From the NCBI GenBank assembly GCA_037442365.1, contig JBBIQK010000005.1, positions 1,137 through 65,136 on the forward strand: DNA of 64,000 bases, given 5' to 3'. Below, piece by piece: positions 23,185-41,327 of the stretch; within the stretch, counting starts at the first letter, position 1; each line of letters opens with the position of its first letter. The translations under genes were made by a program, and so were the position numbers. The stretch comes from Armatimonadota bacterium. Lineage in GTDB: Bacteria; Armatimonadota; Fimbriimonadia; Fimbriimonadales; GBS-DC. Under the pieces are notes generated by a model. That model worked only from the letters and a program-made list of their open reading frames with translations. It was not told where the DNA came from and ran no database searches.

Positions 23185-24393
23185 CTACTGCCCGTCAGGA
23201 GGGGACGGCTTCGCTGCGGGGCGCACGCCGAGCGCAAGCCACATGCTGAACACCAACAACCCAGCGGCGGCGGCATAGGGCAGCGAGTCGCTGTATTTGA
23301 GCGCGCCGTTGCCCCCGATAGGTCCCACAATCCGTGCAAGGCTCTCCAGCGAGCCAGAGACGCCCTGAATGCGCCCTTGCTCGGCGTCGGTTGCAGAGCG
23401 ACTGATCAGGCTCACCACACTGGGCAACGCCAGCGCGCCCCCAACCGAAGCGACTCCCACCAGCAGGTAGAACAGGAACAGCGATTGGGTGAACGCCGCG
23501 CCGAACAACCCCACCACATTCAGCAGCAGCCCGACCAGCAGCGTCCGTTGCTCGCCCAGCGCATGCACCACGCGCCCGACCAGCACCGCCTGTGAGAGCG
23601 CGCCCACCAGTCCCACCACCGCCAGGATGTAGCCAATCTCGCGCGGTCCCAGCTCGAAGCGCACCGCCACAAACAGCGGGAAGGTCGTCTGATACACCGA
23701 GAAGCCGAGCCAGAGGATGAAGTTCATCCAGAGCAGGCGGGCGGCGGCGCTTCGGGTCAGCAGCGCGGGCATCTCGCGCCATGGGGAGGGGCGTTTCGCA
23801 GGCACGAGGTGCGCCGTTTCGGGCAGCGCGACGAACGCATACCCCGCCGCGAGCAGCGAAATCACCGCCGCCGCCCACGCGGGAACCGCCAGCCCGAACG
23901 ACGCCAGCCCACCGCCCAGCGCGGGACCGACGATGAACCCCAGCCCGAACGCCGCGCCAATCAGCCCGAAGTTGCGCGCGCGCCGCTCTGGGGGGCTGAT
24001 GTCGGCGATATAGGCGCGCGCCGTCGTGATGTTGCCCCCCGTGAAGCCGTCCAGCAGGCGCGACACAAACAGCCAGAACAGATTCGGCGCGAGCGCCAGC
24101 ATCACGAAACTCGCCGCCGACCCCAGCAGGCTCAGAATCAGCACGGGGCGACGCCCCCAGCGGTCAGACCACTCGCCCAGAATCGGCGATGCAAGCAGTT
24201 GCGCGACGGAAAACGAGGCGAACAGGAGACCAATCTGCAGCTCGCTCGCCTGAAAGCGCTGGGCGTAGAACGGCAGAAGCGGGATGACTATCCCGAAGCC
24301 GATGAGGCTGACGAAAATCGTGATGAAGACCGCCAGCAGGGCGCGTCGCTTGACCCGCTCATCGGCTTCGGGCGTAATCCGCTGGATTGCCAT
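23185..24393 (-). CDS. MFS transporter (drug/H+ antiporter-like, 12 TM)
   Basis: GEWSDRWGRRPVLILSLLG motif A. About 12 hydrophobic helices. Confidence 0.85.
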   Translation of the reverse strand: MAIQRITPEADERVKRRALLAVFITIFVSLIGFGIVIPLLPFYAQRFQASELQIGLLFASFSVAQLLASPILGEWSDRWGRRPVLILSLLGSAASFVMLALAPNLFWLFVSRLLDGFTGGNITTARAYIADISPPERRARNFGLIGAAFGLGFIVGPALGGGLASFGLAVPAWAAAVISLLAAGYAFVALPETAHLVPAKRPSPWREMPALLTRSAAARLLWMNFILWLGFSVYQTTFPLFVAVRFELGPREIGYILAVVGLVGALSQAVLVGRVVHALGEQRTLLVGLLLNVVGLFGAAFTQSLFLFYLLVGVASVGGALALPSVVSLISRSATDAEQGRIQGVSGSLESLARIVGPIGGNGALKYSDSLPYAAAAGLLVFSMWLALGVRPAAKPSPPDGQ

Positions 24394-27122
24394 CAGTAGC
24401 GTCGTTTGCGCTTCCCGACATGTTGCGCGTGGTGCTTTTTGCGGGGGGCGTCTTCGCTGTCTGCCGCGCTGGTCGCATTCGCCGCGCTTGTTGGGGGAGA
24501 CGCGGCGCTCGCTTTCGGCGCGACCGCCGTCGCCTTCGCCGCCTCTACCTGACGCTGATGGAGCTTCTCACGCGCGCCCTGCCAGCTCACCATAATCTGG
24601 CTCGCGATGAAAATCGACGAGTAAGTGCCCGCAATCACGCCAATCAGCATGGTGACATAGAAGAAGCGCAGATCCTGCGTCACCGCGCCCCAGATGACCA
24701 GCGCGACCAGCACAATCAGCAGGGTCAGGCTGGTGTTGATGGAGCGCGCCAGAGTCTGGTTCAGACTGCGGTTCACAATCGTCGCGAAAGTCTCCCCGCG
24801 CGCCCGATGGCGCAGGTTCTCACGCACGCGGTCATACACAATGATGGTGTCGTTAATTGAGAAGCCAACCAGCGTCAGCAGCGCGGTGATAAAGAGCGCG
24901 TTAATCTCCCAGCCGAGCAGGTAGCCCAGTATCGCCGCGCCGCCGACCATAATCAGCACATCGTGCGCGAGCGCAATCGTCGCGGCGATGCCGAACTTGA
25001 ACCCGCTCCAGCCGCCCTCGATGGAGAAGCGGAGCGCAATATAGAGCAGGATTGCCAGCAGCGCAACCGTCACAGCGGTGATGGCGCGTTGCACGGTCTC
25101 GGCGCGCACGCGCGGGCTGATGCTGGCAAAGCTCACCACCTGCAGCTCGCCCAGCGGTTTGAGCGCGTCCACAATCTTCTGCTGGCTGTCTGCATCGGCG
25201 TCGGCAACATGCACAATCAGCTGGCGGTTGCCGTCGCCGAACAACGCGCCGACCTTTTCGAAGCCCGCCTGTCGCAGCAAGGTCAGCACCTGCGCCAGGT
25301 TCGCCTCAATCGGTTCAGGACGCACAACAGGCGGCTGCTGATTCGCCTGCTCGCCCTGTGCAGGCGCAGGCGGTTGCTGGGCAGTCTGCTCGCCCTGTGC
25401 AGGCGCAGGCGGTTGCTGGTTTGCTGGCTCGTTCTGCGCAGTTGCCGCAGGCGGTTGCTGGTTTGCTGGCTCGTTCTGCGCAGTTGCCGCAGGCGGCTGT
25501 TGATTCGGCTGCTCGTTCTGCGTCGCCGCAGGCGGTTGCGCCTCGGACTTCGGCTGAGTCGCGCCTGCCACCGGTCGCTGCAGCACCAGCTCGCTGCCGC
25601 CTTCGAAGTCGATGCCCGGCTTCAGCCCGCCCAGCCCCAGCCAGAAGACCAGTCCGATCAGGATGGCGATGCTGCTAATCGCGTAATACAGCCCGCGCTT
25701 ATTCACGAAGTCGAAGCGGTCTTTCGCCGCGCCCAGCTGCTCGCCGACCTCTTGACCCAGCTGACGCCGCAAGCCAAACAGCCGCTCGCTCGGATGCACG
25801 CCTACCCCGACCAGCGTGTAAAGCATCGTGCGCGTGCAGAAAATCGCCGTGAAAAAGCTAATCGCCACACCGAAGCCAAGCGTTGTTGCAAACCCCTGCA
25901 CGGGTCCCGTGCCGAACGAGTAGAGAATCGCACAGATGATTATCGTACTCAGGTTCGAATCGAAGATTGCGGGGAACGCGCGTTTGAAAGCGGCGTCCAG
26001 CCCCGCCAGCAGCGTCTTACCCAGACGCAGCTCCTCCTTCAAACGCTCGAAAATCAGGATGTTCGCGTCGATCGCCATGCCGATGGACAGGATGATTCCC
26101 GCAATCGCCGGCAGCGAGAAGGTCACGCCCAGCGATTTGAACATCGCCGTCGCGAACAGCACATACAGCCCCAGCGCAATCACGGAAATCACGCCGGGCA
26201 GCAGGTAATACAGCGCCATAAACACGGCGATTGCCGCAAACCCGATGACGCCTGCTTGAATGATGCGCTCCCACGCCTGCGCGCCCAGAATCGCCTCCAC
26301 ACGGTTGATCGACTCCAGCGAGAGGCTCACGGGCAGTGCGCCTGCGTTCAGCAGGTCGCGCAAACGCGCCGCCTCTTTCAGAGTGAAGTTGCCCTGAATC
26401 ACCGGCTCGCGCAGATTGGCGGACTGAATCACGGGCGCGGAGATAATCTTGTTGTCCAGCAGGATGGCGATATGCTCCTTAAGATAGAGCGACGACGCGC
26501 GCGCGAACTTGTCCTGCCCCTCACGGTTGAAAATCAGCAGCACTTCGGGCGAGAACGATTGGCTGATCACCTCCGCGCGTTCCAGCTCGTCGCCCGTGAC
26601 AATCAGCGGCGACGATTCGATGATTTTCTGATACTCGGGCGTGCCCGGCTCGATGACCTTCCCATCAGGGCTGGTGAGATCGCGGAATTTGACAATCTCG
26701 TCCCCCCCCTGTTCTTCGAGGACGATTTCGTAGCGCCCGGTGGGCTGCTTCTCGGTGCGCACATCGCGCAGGTAGCGGAACTCGAGCCGCGCGGTGGTCT
26801 GCAGCAGCTCGCGCGCCTCCTGCTCATCGGTAAAGCCCGGCAGCTCAATAACTATCTCTGTATCGCCTTTTTGATAGATGGTGGGTTCAATCACGCCCAG
26901 CGAGTCGATGCGTCGGGTGAGGATGTCGACCACCAGTCGCATGCGTTCGGGCGTCCAGAGCTGGCGCTCTTCAGGTGAAAGTTTCTCAATCTCGGCGCGC
27001 AGGGTCATGCGCAACCCGCCCTGCACATCCAGCCCGCGTCGTGCGGGCAGCGTGGCGAACAGGTAGCCCGCAAGCCCCGCGAGCAACAGAACGATACCCA
27101 GGTAAATAAAGTGTTTATTCAA
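24393..27122 (-). CDS. secDF: protein translocase subunit SecDF fusion
   Basis: TTG start with GGAGGAG SD. SecD periplasmic and TM regions (LGLDVQGG-like GLDVQGGLRMTL; IGMAIDANILIFERLKEE), then a P/Q/A-rich linker, then SecF (SINDTIIVYDRVREN). Confidence 0.9.
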   Translation of the reverse strand: MNKHFIYLGIVLLLAGLAGYLFATLPARRGLDVQGGLRMTLRAEIEKLSPEERQLWTPERMRLVVDILTRRIDSLGVIEPTIYQKGDTEIVIELPGFTDEQEARELLQTTARLEFRYLRDVRTEKQPTGRYEIVLEEQGGDEIVKFRDLTSPDGKVIEPGTPEYQKIIESSPLIVTGDELERAEVISQSFSPEVLLIFNREGQDKFARASSLYLKEHIAILLDNKIISAPVIQSANLREPVIQGNFTLKEAARLRDLLNAGALPVSLSLESINRVEAILGAQAWERIIQAGVIGFAAIAVFMALYYLLPGVISVIALGLYVLFATAMFKSLGVTFSLPAIAGIILSIGMAIDANILIFERLKEELRLGKTLLAGLDAAFKRAFPAIFDSNLSTIIICAILYSFGTGPVQGFATTLGFGVAISFFTAIFCTRTMLYTLVGVGVHPSERLFGLRRQLGQEVGEQLGAAKDRFDFVNKRGLYYAISSIAILIGLVFWLGLGGLKPGIDFEGGSELVLQRPVAGATQPKSEAQPPAATQNEQPNQQPPAATAQNEPANQQPPAATAQNEPANQQPPAPAQGEQTAQQPPAPAQGEQANQQPPVVRPEPIEANLAQVLTLLRQAGFEKVGALFGDGNRQLIVHVADADADSQQKIVDALKPLGELQVVSFASISPRVRAETVQRAITAVTVALLAILLYIALRFSIEGGWSGFKFGIAATIALAHDVLIMVGGAAILGYLLGWEINALFITALLTLVGFSINDTIIVYDRVRENLRHRARGETFATIVNRSLNQTLARSINTSLTLLIVLVALVIWGAVTQDLRFFYVTMLIGVIAGTYSSIFIASQIMVSWQGAREKLHQRQVEAAKATAVAPKASAASPPTSAANATSAADSEDAPRKKHHAQHVGKRKRRY
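25335..25545 (-). repeat. in-frame tandem repeats encoding the P/Q/A-rich SecD-SecF linker
   Basis: Near-perfect 42-nt duplication at 25419-25460 and 25461-25502 (QQPPAATAQNEPAN x2), plus two copies of about 39 nt (QQPPAPAQGEQ.) just before it. Confidence 0.8.
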
Positions 27123-28883: not shown

Positions 28884-29879
28884 ATGCATTCCGACCTCTA
28901 CGACATCACGATTATCGGCGGCGGTCCGGTGGGCTTGTTTGGCGCGTTCTACGCGGGGCTGCGCGGGATGCGCGTCAAAATCATCGACAGCCTGCCTGAG
29001 CTGGGAGGGCAGCTCACCGCGCTTTACCCCGAAAAGTATGTGTACGATATGCCCGGCTTTCCCGAAGTGCTGGCGAAAGACCTCGCGCGGGAGATGATTC
29101 GCCAGGCGCTGCGCTTCAAGCCGACGGTATGCCTCGAGGAGCGCGCTGAGACGCTCACCCGTATCGATGAGGGCTGGACGATTACGACTCACACAGGGCA
29201 GGCGCACCATACACGCGCCGTTGTTATCTGCGCGGGGGCGGGCGCGTTCTCCCCGCGCAAGCTGAACGCCGAAGGCGTCGCCGCGTTCGAGGGCAACGGC
29301 ATCTACTACGGCGTGCGCGAGAAATCAATTTTTGCGGGCAAGCGGCTGCTGATTGTCGGCGGCGGCGACTCCGCAGTGGACTGGGCGCTGAACCTCTACC
29401 CGATTGCTCACGAGGTCACCCTCATCCACCGCCGCGACGAGTTCCGCGCCCACGAGCAGAGCGTGCAGGAGCTGCGCCGCTCGCCCGTGAAACTGTTGAC
29501 CCCCTACGAACTGCGACGAGTCTGCGGGAACGGCAGCGTCGAGCGCGCCGTCATCTTCCACAACAAAACGCAGGAAGAGATTGAATTGCCTGTGGATGCC
29601 GTCATTCTGAATCTGGGCTTCGTCGCGACGCTGGGACCCATCAAAAGCTGGGGGCTGGAGTTGCAGGGCAACCAGATTGTGGTGGACGAATACATGCAGA
29701 CGAACCTGCCCGGCGTGTACGCGGCGGGCGATGTGTGTACGCATCGGGGCAAGTTGAAGCTCATCGCCACGGGCGTCGGCGAGGTCTGCACCGCCGTCAA
29801 TCACGCTAAGAGCGTCATCGACCCCACCGCCAAAATGTTTCCCGGACACAGCAGCGACATGGAGCTGCCTGCGTTGTGA
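28884..29879 (+). CDS. ferredoxin-NADP+ reductase, thioredoxin-reductase-like (type 2)
   Basis: YDITIIGGGPVGLFGAFYAGLRGM...LGGQLTALYPEKYVYDMPGFP...IVGGGDSAVDWA...GVYAAGDV matches YumC-type FNR. Confidence 0.9.
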   Translation: MHSDLYDITIIGGGPVGLFGAFYAGLRGMRVKIIDSLPELGGQLTALYPEKYVYDMPGFPEVLAKDLAREMIRQALRFKPTVCLEERAETLTRIDEGWTITTHTGQAHHTRAVVICAGAGAFSPRKLNAEGVAAFEGNGIYYGVREKSIFAGKRLLIVGGGDSAVDWALNLYPIAHEVTLIHRRDEFRAHEQSVQELRRSPVKLLTPYELRRVCGNGSVERAVIFHNKTQEEIELPVDAVILNLGFVATLGPIKSWGLELQGNQIVVDEYMQTNLPGVYAAGDVCTHRGKLKLIATGVGEVCTAVNHAKSVIDPTAKMFPGHSSDMELPAL

Positions 29880-31063
29880 AAATATCAGAGAAACAGATGA
29901 TAGTTCTGGATGGAAAAGTTCAGGGATTGAGCTTTCGTGGACAGCCTGCAGAGCTGCCCATCTATGAGTGGAATAGCTTCGACATCAACTCCATTCGTCA
30001 CGCCTGCAAAGTGAGTTTCCCTGACGGAACTGCAGTTGCTCTGTCGCGTTGGACAGGTCCGAAGAGGACTCGCACATATCCTCTCGCGAGTTTGTACGAT
30101 GCCTATTCCTATTCAGGAAAAATTATCACGGTCATCCCTATTGTAAAAGATGAGGGGCTTGGAGAACGCAAAAACGACTCGAACCTGGATAGAGTTAACT
30201 TCATCACGCTTTCGTGGATGAGCCTGATGAACATCTACATAATCCTTGCCTGGTACAACGAAGCTAAGAAGAAAAGCGACTCCCGAATCACATGTCAGAA
30301 GATTCAAAACAATCATGTGAAACAAAAGATACAGGAAATTTTAGCGTATAGACAAGATGCCCACCACTGGAACCAGAAGCATTTTACTGAGGAGTTCATA
30401 CCGATTTATCAATCTGCAATTGAAAGTTATGAGACGATTGGTCGTGAACTCAAGGTTCAGATGCACGACCGTAAGATTCACGAAGAATACCTTCGGCGGG
30501 TTCGCTGTGAAAATCAGGAGAATACGCTGAACCTTGAGCGATTCAAGCAAATTTCACTTGCAAGGTCGCACCAATCCGCGATTACCGAAACCAGAACAGA
30601 GCACGCGCTGGAGTCGCGGGGGAATTTTCCGAAACCGCTTTTCAGAATCGTGAATAATCTTGGCGGACACTACTACCTGACGGCAGACGAGGTGGAGTTT
30701 ATTGACGAAAGTGAGGTAGTTATCCGAGAGAATAAGAATACGACCAGAGCTATTTTACCCTCGATGCCTGACATCAAAGACGGATTATTCAAGTTGTTGC
30801 TCTATTCCCAGCTCAGCGAGCTGCGACATGGCGATCAGCAACTTCGTTTCAGGGCGCAGCTGTGCCTTTCTGGAAGATTTCAGGGTGAGCTGCAACTGCC
30901 GGCAGAGTCTGGGGCGATTGAGCGTTTTCTGCAACAGTTCAAAAGTCGCGGCAGCTCGTTGCAGCAACGACTTCACTGGCTAAATCGTGAGCTGAAATTG
31001 CTTGGAATCGAGGGCATTCTCAAGCCAGCCAGAACCGTAGGCGGCGACGGAGGCGAGTCATGA
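29876..31063 (+). CDS. putative type II restriction endonuclease (PD-ExK)
   Basis: Low-GC ORF. The GTG start overlaps the fnr stop (alternative ATG at 29897). The C-terminal half has LTADEVEFIDESEVVIRENKN, a D...ExK nuclease motif. The stop overlaps the start of the Dam-class methyltransferase (ATGA). Confidence 0.6.
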   Translation: MKISEKQMIVLDGKVQGLSFRGQPAELPIYEWNSFDINSIRHACKVSFPDGTAVALSRWTGPKRTRTYPLASLYDAYSYSGKIITVIPIVKDEGLGERKNDSNLDRVNFITLSWMSLMNIYIILAWYNEAKKKSDSRITCQKIQNNHVKQKIQEILAYRQDAHHWNQKHFTEEFIPIYQSAIESYETIGRELKVQMHDRKIHEEYLRRVRCENQENTLNLERFKQISLARSHQSAITETRTEHALESRGNFPKPLFRIVNNLGGHYYLTADEVEFIDESEVVIRENKNTTRAILPSMPDIKDGLFKLLLYSQLSELRHGDQQLRFRAQLCLSGRFQGELQLPAESGAIERFLQQFKSRGSSLQQRLHWLNRELKLLGIEGILKPARTVGGDGGES

Positions 31064-31983
31064 TCAAAAGTCCCCTGCGTTTTCCAGGAGGCAAGTCGCG
31101 CGCCATTGCGCAAATGTTGCCTCTGATACCGGAATTTGAGGAGTATCGTGAGCCGATGGTGGGCGGTGGATCGCTCTTTCTGACGCTCAGGCAAAAATAC
31201 CCCCATCGGCGCTACTGGATTAATGACATTAACTACGAACTTTACTGCTTTTGGAAAATCGCTCAGGAGGACGCAGATGCACTGGCAAACGCTGTGCATC
31301 GCGTGCGAGAGGAAACCGCGGATGGACGCATACTTTTTTATCGTTTGCTGGAGAATTACGGACATGGAAGCGAGTTCGAGCGCGCGGTGCGTTTTTTTGT
31401 GTTGAACCGAATCACTTTTTCGGGCACTGTGGATTCTGGAGGATATTCCGAGCAAGCATTCCGAGCGCGGTTCACACCGTCGTCGATTGAACGCATACGC
31501 CCTCTGGGGCGTCTCCTACGAGGCGTGCAAATTACCTGTCAAGATTACGAACCTGTGGTTCAGGCGACTGGCGAAAGCGTGTTCATCTACCTCGATCCTC
31601 CGTATTACTCTGCAGCGGAGTCGCGGCTCTATGGCAAGCGCGGAGAGCTGCATCTGCAGTTCAATCACCAGCGTCTGCGCACTATTCTGCGTCAGATTCC
31701 TCACAAATGGCTACTCACCTACGACGACTGTTCCTACATTCGGAATCTTTATGGCGACTGCACAATCTTACAGTGGACGCTGCAATATGGGATGAATAAT
31801 TACAAGCAGGCTCGCGCCCTTCCGGGCAGGGAACTATTCATCGCGAACTATCTGGGAAGCCAGTCTCTTAACCAGCTGATATTGACTCTTGAAAGAGGCA
31901 GCGTGCAGTATGCGGTTGTAAGTGAACAACCCGTGCCTGATTCAGAGCAGCGTCCAGCAGAAGAGCATCCAGCGAAAGCGTAG
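31060..31983 (+). CDS. N6-adenine DNA methyltransferase, Dam/D12 (alpha) class
   Basis: LRFPGGKSRAIAQMLPLIP, EPMVGGGSLFL (motif I), then IYLDPPYY (motif IV). The motif order is that of alpha-class m6A methyltransferases. Confidence 0.9.
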   Translation: MIKSPLRFPGGKSRAIAQMLPLIPEFEEYREPMVGGGSLFLTLRQKYPHRRYWINDINYELYCFWKIAQEDADALANAVHRVREETADGRILFYRLLENYGHGSEFERAVRFFVLNRITFSGTVDSGGYSEQAFRARFTPSSIERIRPLGRLLRGVQITCQDYEPVVQATGESVFIYLDPPYYSAAESRLYGKRGELHLQFNHQRLRTILRQIPHKWLLTYDDCSYIRNLYGDCTILQWTLQYGMNNYKQARALPGRELFIANYLGSQSLNQLILTLERGSVQYAVVSEQPVPDSEQRPAEEHPAKA

Positions 31984-32013
31984 TCGGAAATGGCGGAGCA
32001 CCGCGCCCAAGGG

Positions 32014-32019
32014 TATAAT
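32014..32019 (+). promoter_or_regulatory. -10 box (gggTATAAT) upstream of glmU
   Basis: caagggTATAATactcgcgcggtcgggagtctgcacATG. Confidence 0.4.
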
Positions 32020-32043
32020 ACTCGCGCGGTCGGGAGTCTGCAC

Positions 32044-33444
32044 ATGGCGTCCACACCGGTAGCAATCGTGATGGCGGCGGGTAAGGGTACCCGCATGAAA
32101 TCGGAGCGTCCCAAGGCGATTACACCGCTGCTGGGTCAACCGCTTGCCAGTTATGTGTTGCGCGCGCTGGAGGCGGCGGGCGCCGCGCCCATCATCGTGG
32201 TGGTGGGACACGGCGCGGAAGAGGTGCAGCGCGCGCTCGGCGAACGCTACCTGTACGCCCTTCAGGCGGAGCAGCTCGGCACAGGGCACGCCGTGATGCA
32301 GGCGGTTCCCTACCTTCCCCCAGAGGCGACCCATGTGCTGATTGCCGCGGGCGACTCGCCGCTTATCACCCCCGATGTGTTCCATGCGTTGCTGGAGACT
32401 GCCCAGCAGACGGACGCCGCGTGCGTGCTGGCGACCGCCGTGCTGGACGACCCCACGGGCTACGGGCGTATCCTGCGCGCCCCAACAGGCGATGTGATGG
32501 GCATCGTGGAAGAGAAGGACGCCACGCCCGACCAGAAAGCGATTCGCGAGGTCTGCACCTCGTTTTACTGTTTTCGCACGGACGCGCTCCGCGACGCCCT
32601 GCCCCGCCTGAGCAACCAGAACGCGCAGGGCGAATATTATCTGACCGACACGATTGGCGTGCTGACGGCGATGGGCGCGCGCGTGGTCGCGTGGCAGTCG
32701 CCTGACCCGACCCTGCTGCTGGGCGTCAACACGCGCTGGGAACTCGCGCAGGTCGGACACGCGCTGCGGATGCGCCTGCTACGCCAGCTCTGCATGGAAG
32801 GCGTCACGATTGTAGACCCTGCCAGCACCTACATCGAGCCGACTGTGCGCATCGGACGCGACACGGTCATCGAGCCGAACACGCACCTGCGCGGCGAGAC
32901 CGTCGTCGGCGAGAACTGCACGCTGGGACCCGACCTGTACCTGCAGGACTGCACGGTGGGCGACGGCTGCCATCTCTTTCGATCGCATATCGTGGGGGCG
33001 CGGCTCGACTCGCAGGTCTCGGTGGGACCGTTCGCACACATTCGTCCCGGCACTGTGCTGCATACGGGCGTTCGGGTGGGCGATTTCGTGGAAATTAAAA
33101 ATGTGGAAGTCGGCGAGGGCACGAAAGTGCTGCACCTGACCTACCTGGGCGACGCGACAATCGGCAAGCACACCAACATCGGCGCGGGCACGATTACCTG
33201 CAACTACGACGGCGAGCGCAAACACCGCACGGTGATTGGCGACGGCGTGTTCGTCGGGTCGCACGCGACTCTGGTGGCGCCCCTGACAATTGGCGACGGC
33301 GCGTATATCGCCGCAGGCAGCCCCATCACCGACGATGTGCCCCCCGAATCGCTGGCAATCGCCCGCAGTTATCAAACGGTTAAGGCAGGATGGGTGCGCA
33401 AACGGCGCGAATCTAAACAAGGCGCGGGAGGCAACGAACAATGA
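32044..33444 (+). CDS. glmU: bifunctional UDP-N-acetylglucosamine pyrophosphorylase / GlcN-1-P N-acetyltransferase
   Basis: AIVMAAGKGTRMKS...LGTGHAV N-terminal domain plus a left-handed beta-helix hexapeptide C-terminal domain (NIGAGTITCNYDG). Start moved to ATG 32044. Confidence 0.95.
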   Translation: MASTPVAIVMAAGKGTRMKSERPKAITPLLGQPLASYVLRALEAAGAAPIIVVVGHGAEEVQRALGERYLYALQAEQLGTGHAVMQAVPYLPPEATHVLIAAGDSPLITPDVFHALLETAQQTDAACVLATAVLDDPTGYGRILRAPTGDVMGIVEEKDATPDQKAIREVCTSFYCFRTDALRDALPRLSNQNAQGEYYLTDTIGVLTAMGARVVAWQSPDPTLLLGVNTRWELAQVGHALRMRLLRQLCMEGVTIVDPASTYIEPTVRIGRDTVIEPNTHLRGETVVGENCTLGPDLYLQDCTVGDGCHLFRSHIVGARLDSQVSVGPFAHIRPGTVLHTGVRVGDFVEIKNVEVGEGTKVLHLTYLGDATIGKHTNIGAGTITCNYDGERKHRTVIGDGVFVGSHATLVAPLTIGDGAYIAAGSPITDDVPPESLAIARSYQTVKAGWVRKRRESKQGAGGNEQ

Positions 33445-39354: not shown

Positions 39355-41190
39355 TCAGCCGTCGCACCCCTGCCCGAAGGCGAACAGCACACCCAGTAAA
39401 TCCGCGTCGTCAATCGCGCCGTCCCAGTTCAGGTCGTAGCGGTTGTAGCCACTCTGCCCAAAGCGGAACAGCATCCCCAGCAGGTCGGCGTCGTCCACGC
39501 AGCCATCGCCGTCTGTGTCGCCCACCGCATCGCGCCGCCAGCGATAGTCGTTGCGCATCGCCTCGCGCCAGTCCTGAATGGTGTTCCACTTGCCCTCGAT
39601 GTAGTAGGGGTCAATCTGCGGCCAGCGATACAGGCACACGCCCCAGATAGCCTGATTTGCGGGGTTCTGGTTCCATGTGTGTATCTCCTGATAGGCGTTT
39701 TTAATCCAGCCGTTGTTGGTGTTCGTCCATGGCTCGCCCTGATTGGTCTCGGTGATGAAGGCGGGCAGATGGCGCAGCGACGGCGGCACGCGACTCAGCA
39801 GGTTGCGATAGACGCGAAAGTGCAGGTACACCTGATCGTAGGGCGGCTGCATGCGCGTTTCGCTGAAGATGTTGTTCGGGTCGCTGCCGTGCGTGTAGGC
39901 GTGCAGAATAATCCCGTCCTGCTCCGCGCCGATGGCGTCCAGCATCTGCTGCCAGTAATCCAGAAAGCCCGGAATGCCGTACTGCGGGAAGGGCGGCGCG
40001 TAGGTGCCCACAGGCGCGGCGCAGACCCAGTCGTCTTCGTGTCCGGGAATCGACCGAATCGCGTCGCGGCACATGCGGAACACCTGCACATAGCGGGCGA
40101 CGGTGATAGGTTCGCCCTGCTCGCCGCCGGGCCATTCCGCAGGCAGGTTCGTCTCGTTGCCGATAACCCAGATGTGCGCGCCGTGCGAGTTGCGCACGAA
40201 GTTCGCCACGCGCTGGGCGAAGTTGGCGTATTGCGACGAGGGCGGCAGCGTGCCGTTGGGGTGATAGCCGTAGTTCAGGCGCACTATTACCCCATGCCCC
40301 GCGTTCGCATAGGGGCGGTAGTCGCGCCCCGTCTGGTTGTTGGGGTCTGCACCCAGCTCCTCCGTGAACAGGATCCAGATGCGCTTGCCCTCCGCGTCGG
40401 CGGCAAACTCGCCGCCCGGCTCGTGCAGCCCGAAAATCCACGGCGGGTCTACCGGGTCGCTCTCGTTGGGCAGCACGCGAATGTCGTCGATGTATACCGT
40501 GTAGGGGCGCGTGTCGCTGGGGTCTACGGGTGTGAAGGCGAGATGCTCCAGCACGCCCGCGCGCCCATCCAGTACGCCGTTCGCGCCGCCTGCAAACGGC
40601 AACACAGGCTCGCTGGGCAGGTCGAACACCACCTGCACCCAGCGGTCTTTCTGGCGGATGCGCTTGCCGATAGGCGGGTTGCTGGCGTCGCCCTGCGCCG
40701 CGCCCACCCACTCGATGCCGCCCGTCGCGCCGCCGTTCGCGCCGCAGGCGGCTCTGGACTGAGTCTCGCGCACACCCAGCGTCAGATAAAAGTCGGGCGT
40801 ACTGCTGGGCACATAGAGCCACAGGCTCAGCCGACGCTGGAAGCTAATCGTCGGATTCGCGTAATAGAGCGTGTTGAAGGTCGTCAGGCGCAGCCACGCG
40901 CGGGGATTGCCGTTGAACTGCCAGGCGACCTTCAACGCGCGGCTGCCCGACGGCGTGCGGTTGCGCTCCAGACTAATCTGAGCGCAGTTGGGACCGCTGC
41001 TGCACGCCCCTGTGTACGCCAGAAAGCCGCTGGTCGTGCCCGAAAAGCTTGGCTGGCGGAACATCACCACGCCGTTGAGACCGTTCGAGTAGCCCTCGAA
41101 GTGCTGTATCTCGCACTGCGCCGCCGCAGTGTGCGTCAGGAGCGTCATGAGCGCGCCCCATGTCCACAACATCCCCTTGCGCGTTTGCAT
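39355..41190 (-). CDS. secreted clan GH-A-like glycoside hydrolase with C-terminal dockerin-type repeats
   Basis: Signal-like [34 protein letters not shown] (acid/base NE) and AFITETNQG (nucleophile TE) spacing typical of (beta/alpha)8 clan A. C-terminal [21 protein letters not shown] / [21 protein letters not shown] duplicated Ca-binding dockerin segments. Confidence 0.6.
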
Positions 41191-41327
41191 GGCTTCTACC
41201 CCCGCGCGGTCGATTCGCCGCACACGTCCCTATTCCTTGCAAGGTACGCTGGTGAGCGTTGCGAAGTGTGCGAATCACCTTATGTAAGCGCGATTAGAAG
41301 CCGTTCAGGAATGCGCGCTCAAATCCA

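Follow-up and report, generated by a model that had tools for sequence, protein, structure and literature searches.

A cassette of two open reading frames (ORFs) lies between a flavoprotein gene and glmU in the 64,000-nucleotide stretch of DNA analysed here (hereafter the window; contig JBBIQK010000005.1 of assembly GCA_037442365.1, from an Armatimonadota bacterium). Our analysis indicates that this cassette is probably a type IIP restriction-modification (R-M) system directed at GGCC, in which ORF2 makes N4-methylcytosine (m4C) within the site (GGm4CC) and ORF1 is the cognate GGCC endonuclease. ORF2 would methylate host DNA at N4 of one GGCC cytosine in each strand, and ORF1 would cleave unmethylated GGCC in incoming DNA at a C-terminal PD-(D/E)XK-type site (D271, E285, K287), with its N-terminal domain of ~210 amino acids (aa) presumably contributing site recognition. 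The arrangement is that of a type II system, with separate, adjoining nuclease (R) and methyltransferase (M) genes; the ORF1 stop and the ORF2 start share 4 nt (ATGA), a GGAGG sequence is found just 5' of the ORF2 start, and M may be translationally coupled to R. A preliminary description of the window, made from its letters without database searches, had reported both the coupled ORFs of a type II system at this position and a drop in GC content across them, and both observations hold: the GC profile runs at 0.42-0.55 over the two ORFs versus 0.59-0.69 in the flanks, and the island as a whole has 49.8% GC versus 62.7% for the window. The cassette is an ordinary kind of defence system and leaves the understanding of R-M systems unchanged; what it adds is a widespread nuclease family, lacking a relative in Pfam, NCBIfam or among solved structures, for which a site can now be predicted and put to the test (GGCC, m4C-sensitive). 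The two genes and their motifs are as follows.

29876..31063, or from ATG 29897 (388 aa), + strand: R gene ORF1, predicted type II restriction endonuclease, 395 aa counted from GTG 29876 (ORF, PADLOC REase_II)
30686..30736, + strand: codons of the putative ORF1 catalytic motif, D271-E272...E285-x-K287 (invariant in 27 members)
31060..31983, + strand: M gene ORF2, alpha-class D12-fold methyltransferase, 307 aa, predicted product GGm4CC (Pfam, PADLOC, PDB 7M6B)
31150..31173, + strand: ORF2 S-adenosylmethionine-binding motif I, EPMVGGGS, residues 31-38 (translation, aligned with the same motif of M.CbeI)
31594..31605, + strand: ORF2 catalytic motif IV, DPPY, residues 179-182 (translation, aligned with M.CbeI DPPY 179-182)

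The ORF2 methyltransferase

ORF2 (METHYLTRANSFERASE) matches Pfam MethyltransfD12 (PF02086) at 1.3e-37, possesses the GGGS...DPPY motifs, and has motif I, the variable region and motif IV in the order of the alpha class, with DPPY rather than SPPY as motif IV. The preliminary description had taken it for an alpha-class Dam/D12 methyltransferase producing N6-methyladenine (m6A). The D12 fold, the alpha class and the two motifs are borne out, but the placement among m6A Dam enzymes is not: ORF2 scores under both NCBIfam Dam cut-offs (101.6 vs 114.85 for TIGR00571 and 48.9 vs 441 for PRK10904) and is a relative of M.CbeI (protein P0121), to which it is 51% identical over 265 aa (E 3e-103) in a full-length match with DPPY aligned. 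Its best solved relative is PDB 7M6B (E 7.9e-91), which is M.CbeI of Caldicellulosiruptor bescii (PMC8616854); the corresponding values for DpnIIA and E. coli Dam are 1.7e-10 and ~4e-9. With full-length similarity far above that to the m6A Dam enzymes, ORF2 belongs to the M.CbeI subfamily. In PADLOC it matches MTase_II PDLC03247 at 2.5e-129, and the R-linked MTase_II model scores 428 bits versus 321 bits for the orphan model.

The characterised enzymes of this kind share one product. M.CbeI, once annotated as an adenine methylase, protects GGCC from CbeI with an m4C signature (Chung et al. 2012, PMC3425538), and it shares 57% identity with DmtB of Anabaena, which likewise makes m4C in GGCC (PMC3425538). 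For the D12-domain enzyme M.Ssp6803II, m4C formation in GGCC has been shown by knockout, SMRT (single-molecule real-time) sequencing and bisulfite sequencing (Hagemann et al. 2018, PMC6105098). According to the reports on DmtB and M.Ssp6803II, the methylated base is the inner, first cytosine of GGCC. Thus, all three characterised enzymes of the ORF2 kind that we found make GGm4CC; M.CbeI was compared directly with ORF2 in sequence, and DmtB and M.Ssp6803II were likened to it by their published descriptions. The product of ORF2 is accordingly predicted to be N4-methylcytosine in GGCC, a prediction drawn from these relatives and from the GGCC avoidance considered below, and an m6A assignment appears unlikely because ORF2 is so close to M.CbeI. 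ORF2 would then be a further case in which the label “DNA adenine methylase”, carried over from Pfam D12, is probably wrong for a subfamily that makes N4-methylcytosine.

The predicted ORF1 nuclease family and its methyltransferase partner

ORF1 is matched by two PADLOC REase_II models, both REBASE-derived: PDLC03572 (E 7.5e-48) aligns residues 13-323 to positions 10-309 of a 371-position model, and PDLC03474 (E 4.7e-46) covers residues 267-389. It has no match in Pfam or NCBIfam, nor any among PDB sequences in searches with phmmer and with the family profile, in agreement with the earlier view that the nuclease has no other recognisable domain. That view had also held ORF1 not to be any named enzyme; none was found by our searches, yet the REBASE-derived models do recognise it. 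The protein is one of a compact family of ~385 aa that forms 479 clusters at 50% identity among 1.84 billion representatives. Its homologues number 347 or more, every one annotated as hypothetical, and the family is present in at least 585 species genomes from Armatimonadota, Chloroflexota, Poribacteria, Cyanobacteria and the Candidate Phyla Radiation (CPR), as well as in a Thiomargarita and a Methanothermococcus. As far as could be determined, this nuclease family has not been studied. Its members from hot-spring organisms would plausibly be thermostable HaeIII isoschizomers.

An alignment of 27 sequences, with ORF1 as its first row, contains 57 invariant columns. These include D271, E272, E285 and K287 of the C-terminal D...ExK motif (ADEVEFIDESEVVIRENK) that the preliminary description had pointed out, and D271, E285 and K287, the residues expected of a PD-(D/E)XK nuclease, are also kept in the fusion proteins described below. 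Invariant residues of the N-terminal part are W59, P62-K63-R64, R66, K91-D92-E93-G94, D105 and H164-W165-N166. ORF1 has two parts: an N-terminal domain of ~210 aa, for which no relatives were recognised, and a PD-(D/E)XK-like domain at the C-terminus. In an AlphaFold (AF2) model of good quality (predicted local distance difference test score 89.5, predicted template modelling score 0.88), D271 precedes strand 272-275, E285 and K287 are located in strand 280-288, and helices 220-240 and 297-311 flank them, an order of elements that, in the model, fits a PD-(D/E)XK core. The weak top matches of the model in Foldseek are mostly PD-(D/E)XK nucleases, including Exo5 (probability 0.75), Cas4 SSO0001, ACE1, MspJI, EcoO109I, EndoMS and AdnAB. 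Membership of ORF1 in the CbeI/HaeIII type was considered and rejected: there is no Pfam RE_HaeIII match (E <= 0.1), BLASTP against CbeI gives E 0.19, and hhalign with the family profile gives a probability of 0.15%.

The association of the two genes is a property of the whole family. In a sample of 80 fetched species loci of the ORF1 family, also used for the avoidance statistics below, an M.CbeI-like gene follows the ORF1 homologue on the same strand in 79, and within 400 bp in 77. A natural single-chain fusion was also observed (P0112, 657 aa, from a Logan contig), in which an ORF1-type nuclease is N-terminal and an M.CbeI-type D12 methyltransferase occupies residues 396-633.

A comparison of the cassette with CbeI/M.CbeI of Caldicellulosiruptor (Anaerocellum) bescii, a system with GG/CC cleavage and m4C protection, shows both shared and disparate features. 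R precedes M on the same strand in both, the methyltransferases belong to one subfamily (51% identity, full length, DPPY, D12 fold), and the predicted target of the cassette is GGCC too. In contrast, CbeI is a 326-aa protein of Pfam RE_HaeIII (PF09556), to which the 395-aa ORF1 is unrelated; since ORF1 shows no similarity to CbeI, a single methyltransferase subfamily appears with two unrelated nuclease families. An integrase adjoins the CbeI locus, and none adjoins the cassette. In the C. bescii genome (CP001393.1; locus L082, 2057-2908 and 4879-6191), CbeI/M.CbeI is flanked by a phage-type integrase gene and three helix-turn-helix (Xre-type) genes, followed by a DnaB-like helicase gene, so that this pair, in contrast to the bare cassette, seems to belong to an integrated mobile element.

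DmtB of Anabaena and M.Ssp6803II of Synechocystis (sll0729) likewise have the D12 fold, are annotated as adenine methylases and make m4C in GGCC. They are, however, solitary enzymes, M.Ssp6803II having regulatory and physiological roles, whereas ORF2 is coupled to a nuclease gene and gets its higher PADLOC score from the R-linked model, not the orphan one. HaeIII and other GGCC systems also share the recognition sequence predicted here, but HaeIII, SuaI and PhoI differ from the cassette in the class and chemistry of the methyltransferase and in the nuclease family: M.HaeIII makes 5-methylcytosine, and SuaI and PhoI use beta-class m4C enzymes (PMC3425538). Most likely, the cassette is an alternative to CbeI/HaeIII that has the same specificity but a different, uncharacterised nuclease.

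GGCC avoidance and competing explanations

The preliminary description had left the specificity of the nuclease open; comparative genomics narrows it, and points to GGCC. In the host part of the window no other of the 256 tetramers is as depleted as GGCC, with 21 observed vs 375 expected from a maximal-order Markov model, and the island itself has none (3.7 expected). In the pooled flanks of the 80 family loci the observed/expected ratio (O/E) of GGCC is 0.17, followed by CTAG at 0.62, with GATC at 0.68; among the 16 palindromic tetramers, GGCC ranks first in 46 of the 80 loci and first or second in 73. The 46 first ranks correspond to P ~2e-34 if the loci are assumed to be independent, which they are not fully. 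By group, the GGCC O/E is 0.05 in Armatimonadota, 0.17 in Chloroflexota and in Cyanobacteria, 0.22 in Poribacteria, 0.41 in CPR and 0.22 in the others, and it is 0.84 in 48 control contigs with only distant homologues of the flavoprotein. All ten NGGCCN contexts are depleted alike, at 0.05-0.22 in the family loci and 0.01-0.05 in the clade of close relatives of the window. A 6-bp superset of GGCC was thus rejected as the target, this uniform depletion indicating that the selected target is the 4-bp word.

Several results weigh against a GGCC R-M system in the window. The GGCC specificity proposed for the cassette rests on 51% identity to M.CbeI together with avoidance statistics, and that avoidance is shared by the entire clade of close relatives, including contigs in which the cassette site is empty (31 GGCC observed vs 1306 expected in 232 kb, O/E 0.02). 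It therefore does not serve as proof that the copy in the window is active, nor is it creditable to that copy alone; what it shows is that the lineage has long been under restriction pressure at GGCC. Other words are also strongly avoided in the host part of the window and the related contigs L083-L112, namely ACGT (O/E 0.04-0.07), CTAG (0.10-0.12), GATC (0.27-0.28) and CCGG (0.24-0.33); the control contigs are near 1 for ACGT, GATC and CCGG, with CTAG at 0.68. The pattern hints at several more restriction systems in the lineage. At the structural level, with significance set at E <= 0.001, neither the whole ORF1 chain (best E 0.22) nor its C-terminal domain modelled alone (best E 0.08) had a significant PDB match in Foldseek. 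A PD-(D/E)XK fold for ORF1 is consequently likely but not demonstrated, because in the absence of a significant match it rests on the motif, the predicted topology and the weak, consistent matches. Finally, our scans found no promoter, terminator or C-protein for the cassette, the missing promoter and C-protein being the points that count here, and the start of R is uncertain, being either GTG 29876 or ATG 29897.

A separate scan of the long reading frames of the window for [DNS]PP[YFW] returned just ORF2 and one DPPW in a 624-aa frame (39358-41229, - strand).

These points give some room to other readings. One is that the methyltransferase is right and the nuclease is not: ORF2 makes GGm4CC, and ORF1 either has a longer or different site, containing or overlapping GGCC, or is inactive and leaves ORF2 an orphan like M.Ssp6803II. 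Orphan family members with regulatory roles do exist (PMC6560206), R has no promoter of its own and an ambiguous start codon, and the GGCC avoidance of the clade predates the insert. Nevertheless, we regard this reading as unlikely. All 57 invariant columns are intact in ORF1 (by definition, since ORF1 is in the alignment), the R-linked PADLOC model outscores the orphan model, and the uniform depletion of NGGCCN contexts argues against a 6-bp superset. In addition, the chromosome of Synechocystis, which bears the orphan enzyme, has 29,852 GGCC sites, and GGCC is described there as a motif that occurs frequently; methylation alone, therefore, does not remove GGCC sites.

A second alternative, which we consider very unlikely, would make ORF2 a Dam/D12 N6-adenine methyltransferase and ORF1 its cognate nuclease, with some adenine-containing site as the target. 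ORF2 has the Pfam D12 match and a DPPY motif, the latter typical of m6A enzymes, its relatives are publicly annotated as “DNA adenine methylase”, and GATC is also under-represented in the window (O/E 0.28). However, M.CbeI and M.Ssp6803II carried the same adenine methylase label until experiments showed m4C, ORF2 falls under both Dam cut-offs and lies ~80 orders of magnitude further from every solved Dam or DpnIIA than from M.CbeI, and across the 80 host loci the GATC ratio of 0.68 compares with 0.17 for GGCC. It is harder still to credit that ORF1 is not a nuclease but a DNA-binding or regulatory partner of the methyltransferase, so that the pair would not be a restriction system. Such a role would accord with the lack of homology in Pfam, NCBIfam or PDB, the lack of a significant structural match, and public annotations that all read “hypothetical protein”. 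It does not accord with the invariant D...ExK in its beta-strand context, with weak Foldseek matches that are nearly all PD-(D/E)XK nucleases, with the REase_II models that match ORF1, or with the strong genome-wide loss of GGCC in the hosts, the expected product of cleavage pressure. A GGCC R-M pair remains the reading that we prefer.

Some members of the family depart from the usual pattern. The R-M pairs of a Methanothermococcus sp. metagenome-assembled genome (MAG; L057), a cross-domain occurrence, and of a Phototrophicaceae MAG (L049) are accompanied by little GGCC avoidance (9 observed vs 12.7 expected and 83 observed vs 130 expected, respectively), and these may be recent acquisitions or inactive copies. 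Three metagenome contigs encode proteins of ~1000 aa in which an N-terminal region containing a VWA domain is joined to a complete ORF1-type nuclease module (L163, 5001-8060; L164, 6001-8997; L165, 4319-7327). All three keep every invariant nuclease residue, and each is encoded downstream of a gene for a ~775-aa Ser/Thr kinase and upstream of xseA. In L165 a canonical standalone R and M pair comes right after the fusion, and in L163 and L164 no M.CbeI-like gene was found within 13-15 kb of it. GGCC is absent from each of the three loci, where 60-71 are expected; that this holds even where a methyltransferase is not close by speaks for GGCC as the site of the nuclease. These fusions could represent a kinase/VWA-controlled use of the GGCC nuclease outside the classical R-M pair. 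A broader proposal, to which we would give a little less than an even chance, is that ORF1 represents a structurally new endonuclease family, with a PD-(D/E)XK-like core attached to the N-terminal domain without known relatives, that cuts GGCC independently of HaeIII/CbeI and is the usual partner of the GGm4CC methyltransferase in at least 585 species. On this view, the kinase-linked VWA fusions have taken up the same module and retain it in DNA free of GGCC even with no methyltransferase close by, which would hint at a use other than R-M.

The insertion site and the host genes

The cassette is a real insertion/deletion polymorphism, as four relatives have the empty site. A metagenome scan with the flavoprotein as query returned 80 loci; in the close relatives compared, the flavoprotein is 88-95% identical to that of the window, and 92-93% identical in the empty-site contigs. 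In L087, L089, L090 and L112 the order is flavoprotein gene, glmU and prs directly, with a gap of ~80 nt between the first two genes in three of them. The preliminary description, in which the flavoprotein gene was called fnr, had proposed comparing the fnr-glmU junction in relatives, and this comparison establishes the cassette as an insert. The segment and its neighbours are as follows.

29880..32000, no strand: inserted segment of ~2.12 kb (empty-site alignment, GC profile, repeat and promoter/terminator scans)
28884..29879, + strand: host gene upstream, TrxR-like flavoprotein (Pfam Pyr_redox_2 6e-35)
32014..33444, + strand: host gene downstream, glmU, including TATAAT 32014-32019 (NCBIfam GlmU equivalog 6e-169)

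Alignment with three empty sites gives an exact left end, right after the flavoprotein TGA (29877-29879), and a right end between 31984 and ~32009, just 5' of a conserved GGGTATAAT; the insert is thus essentially the two genes alone, and the same alignment reveals no target-site duplication. Neither an integrase nor meaningful flanking repeats were found in the ORF list and the repeat search, as the preliminary description had already noted. Read-through from the flavoprotein gene would be the simplest account of how the cassette is transcribed, because the scan detected no promoter- or terminator-like site between that gene and R.

Horizontal acquisition of the cassette is supported. Vertical inheritance was rejected as an explanation: in none of the 80 other family loci is the cassette between a flavoprotein gene and glmU, and the closest R homologue is 66-68% identical, versus 88-97% for the host proteins of relatives. 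In 78 of the 80 family loci the GC content of the cassette is lower than that of its flanks. A mobile vector was also sought and discarded; ORF1 had no tblastn match among 72,556 plasmids or 50,697 phages, and the cassette has no repeats, integrase, promoter or terminator of its own. Bare insertions of this kind are common, the flanks being conserved and the R-M genes found in some genomes and missing from others (Furuta et al. 2010, PMC2853133). Like those, the cassette has a lower GC content than its host and no linked mobility gene; unlike them, it lacks a long target duplication, it abuts a stop codon, and host bases may supply the start of R.

Near-identical populations differ in what follows the flavoprotein gene, and this position is a synteny breakpoint. 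In L093 (1579-2406, - strand) a DUF642/PEP-CTERM gene has been inserted before glmU at the same site, and in L094 (6010-6672, - strand), L088 (1803-2300, - strand) and other contigs the flavoprotein gene is followed by genes for ankyrin-repeat, fasciclin or unknown membrane proteins. Three further contigs (L083, 5025-5147; L084, 6008-6130; L085, 6008-6130) contain a 41-codon in-frame M.CbeI-like relic 15 nt after the flavoprotein gene, with unrelated genes next to it. The relic, which spans residues 153-193, reads NPPY where DPPY would stand and shares 63% identity with ORF2; none of the other fetched copies is closer to it. Judged by these sequence comparisons, another copy of this methyltransferase family left it behind as a scar, and the site appears to have held at least two different copies of that family. 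For population genomics, the cassette offers a clean presence/absence marker.

The upstream flavoprotein is TrxR-like, lacks the CxxC motif and is of the ferredoxin-NADP+ reductase type; its NCBIfam TRX_reduct score is under the cut-off, and the Joint Genome Institute names for it are thioredoxin reductase or ferredoxin-NADP+ reductase. Its last codons provide a GGAG and a GTG that may start R. The preliminary description had the nuclease start overlapping the fnr stop (GTGA); the overlap is there, but GTG 29876 belongs to the host, since the empty sites of the junction alignment carry TTGTGA too, and the gene caller picks ATG 29897. The closest ORF1 homologues start with MSEKS, matching residues 4-6 of the GTG-started product.

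On the other side, cassette and host are joined upstream of glmU, which is followed by prs. The glmU ORF listed from ATG 31990 is over-extended, the NCBIfam GlmU match beginning at residue 25 of this long ORF. The conserved GGGTATAAT, at 32011-32019 in the window and also present in the empty sites, contains a -10-like TATAAT (32014-32019). Because of this conservation and the match from residue 25, the likely start of glmU is ATG 32044, behind a GGGAG.

The host is a member of the Fimbriimonadales (Armatimonadota) from a hot spring, and the sequence comes from Logan assembly SRR11582161. Its prs product clusters at >=90% identity with “bacterium HR15”, which has no class in the NCBI taxonomy; the placement follows from GlmU, whose nearest named relatives, at 82-86% identity, are from Fimbriimonadales MAGs. 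Elsewhere in the window, a 909-aa ORF (24393-27122, - strand), which by eye we take to resemble a SecD/SecF fusion, contains a 39/42-nt tandem repeat in 3-5 copies at 25328-25539 that encodes a Q/P/A-rich linker (..QNEPANQQPPAATA..).

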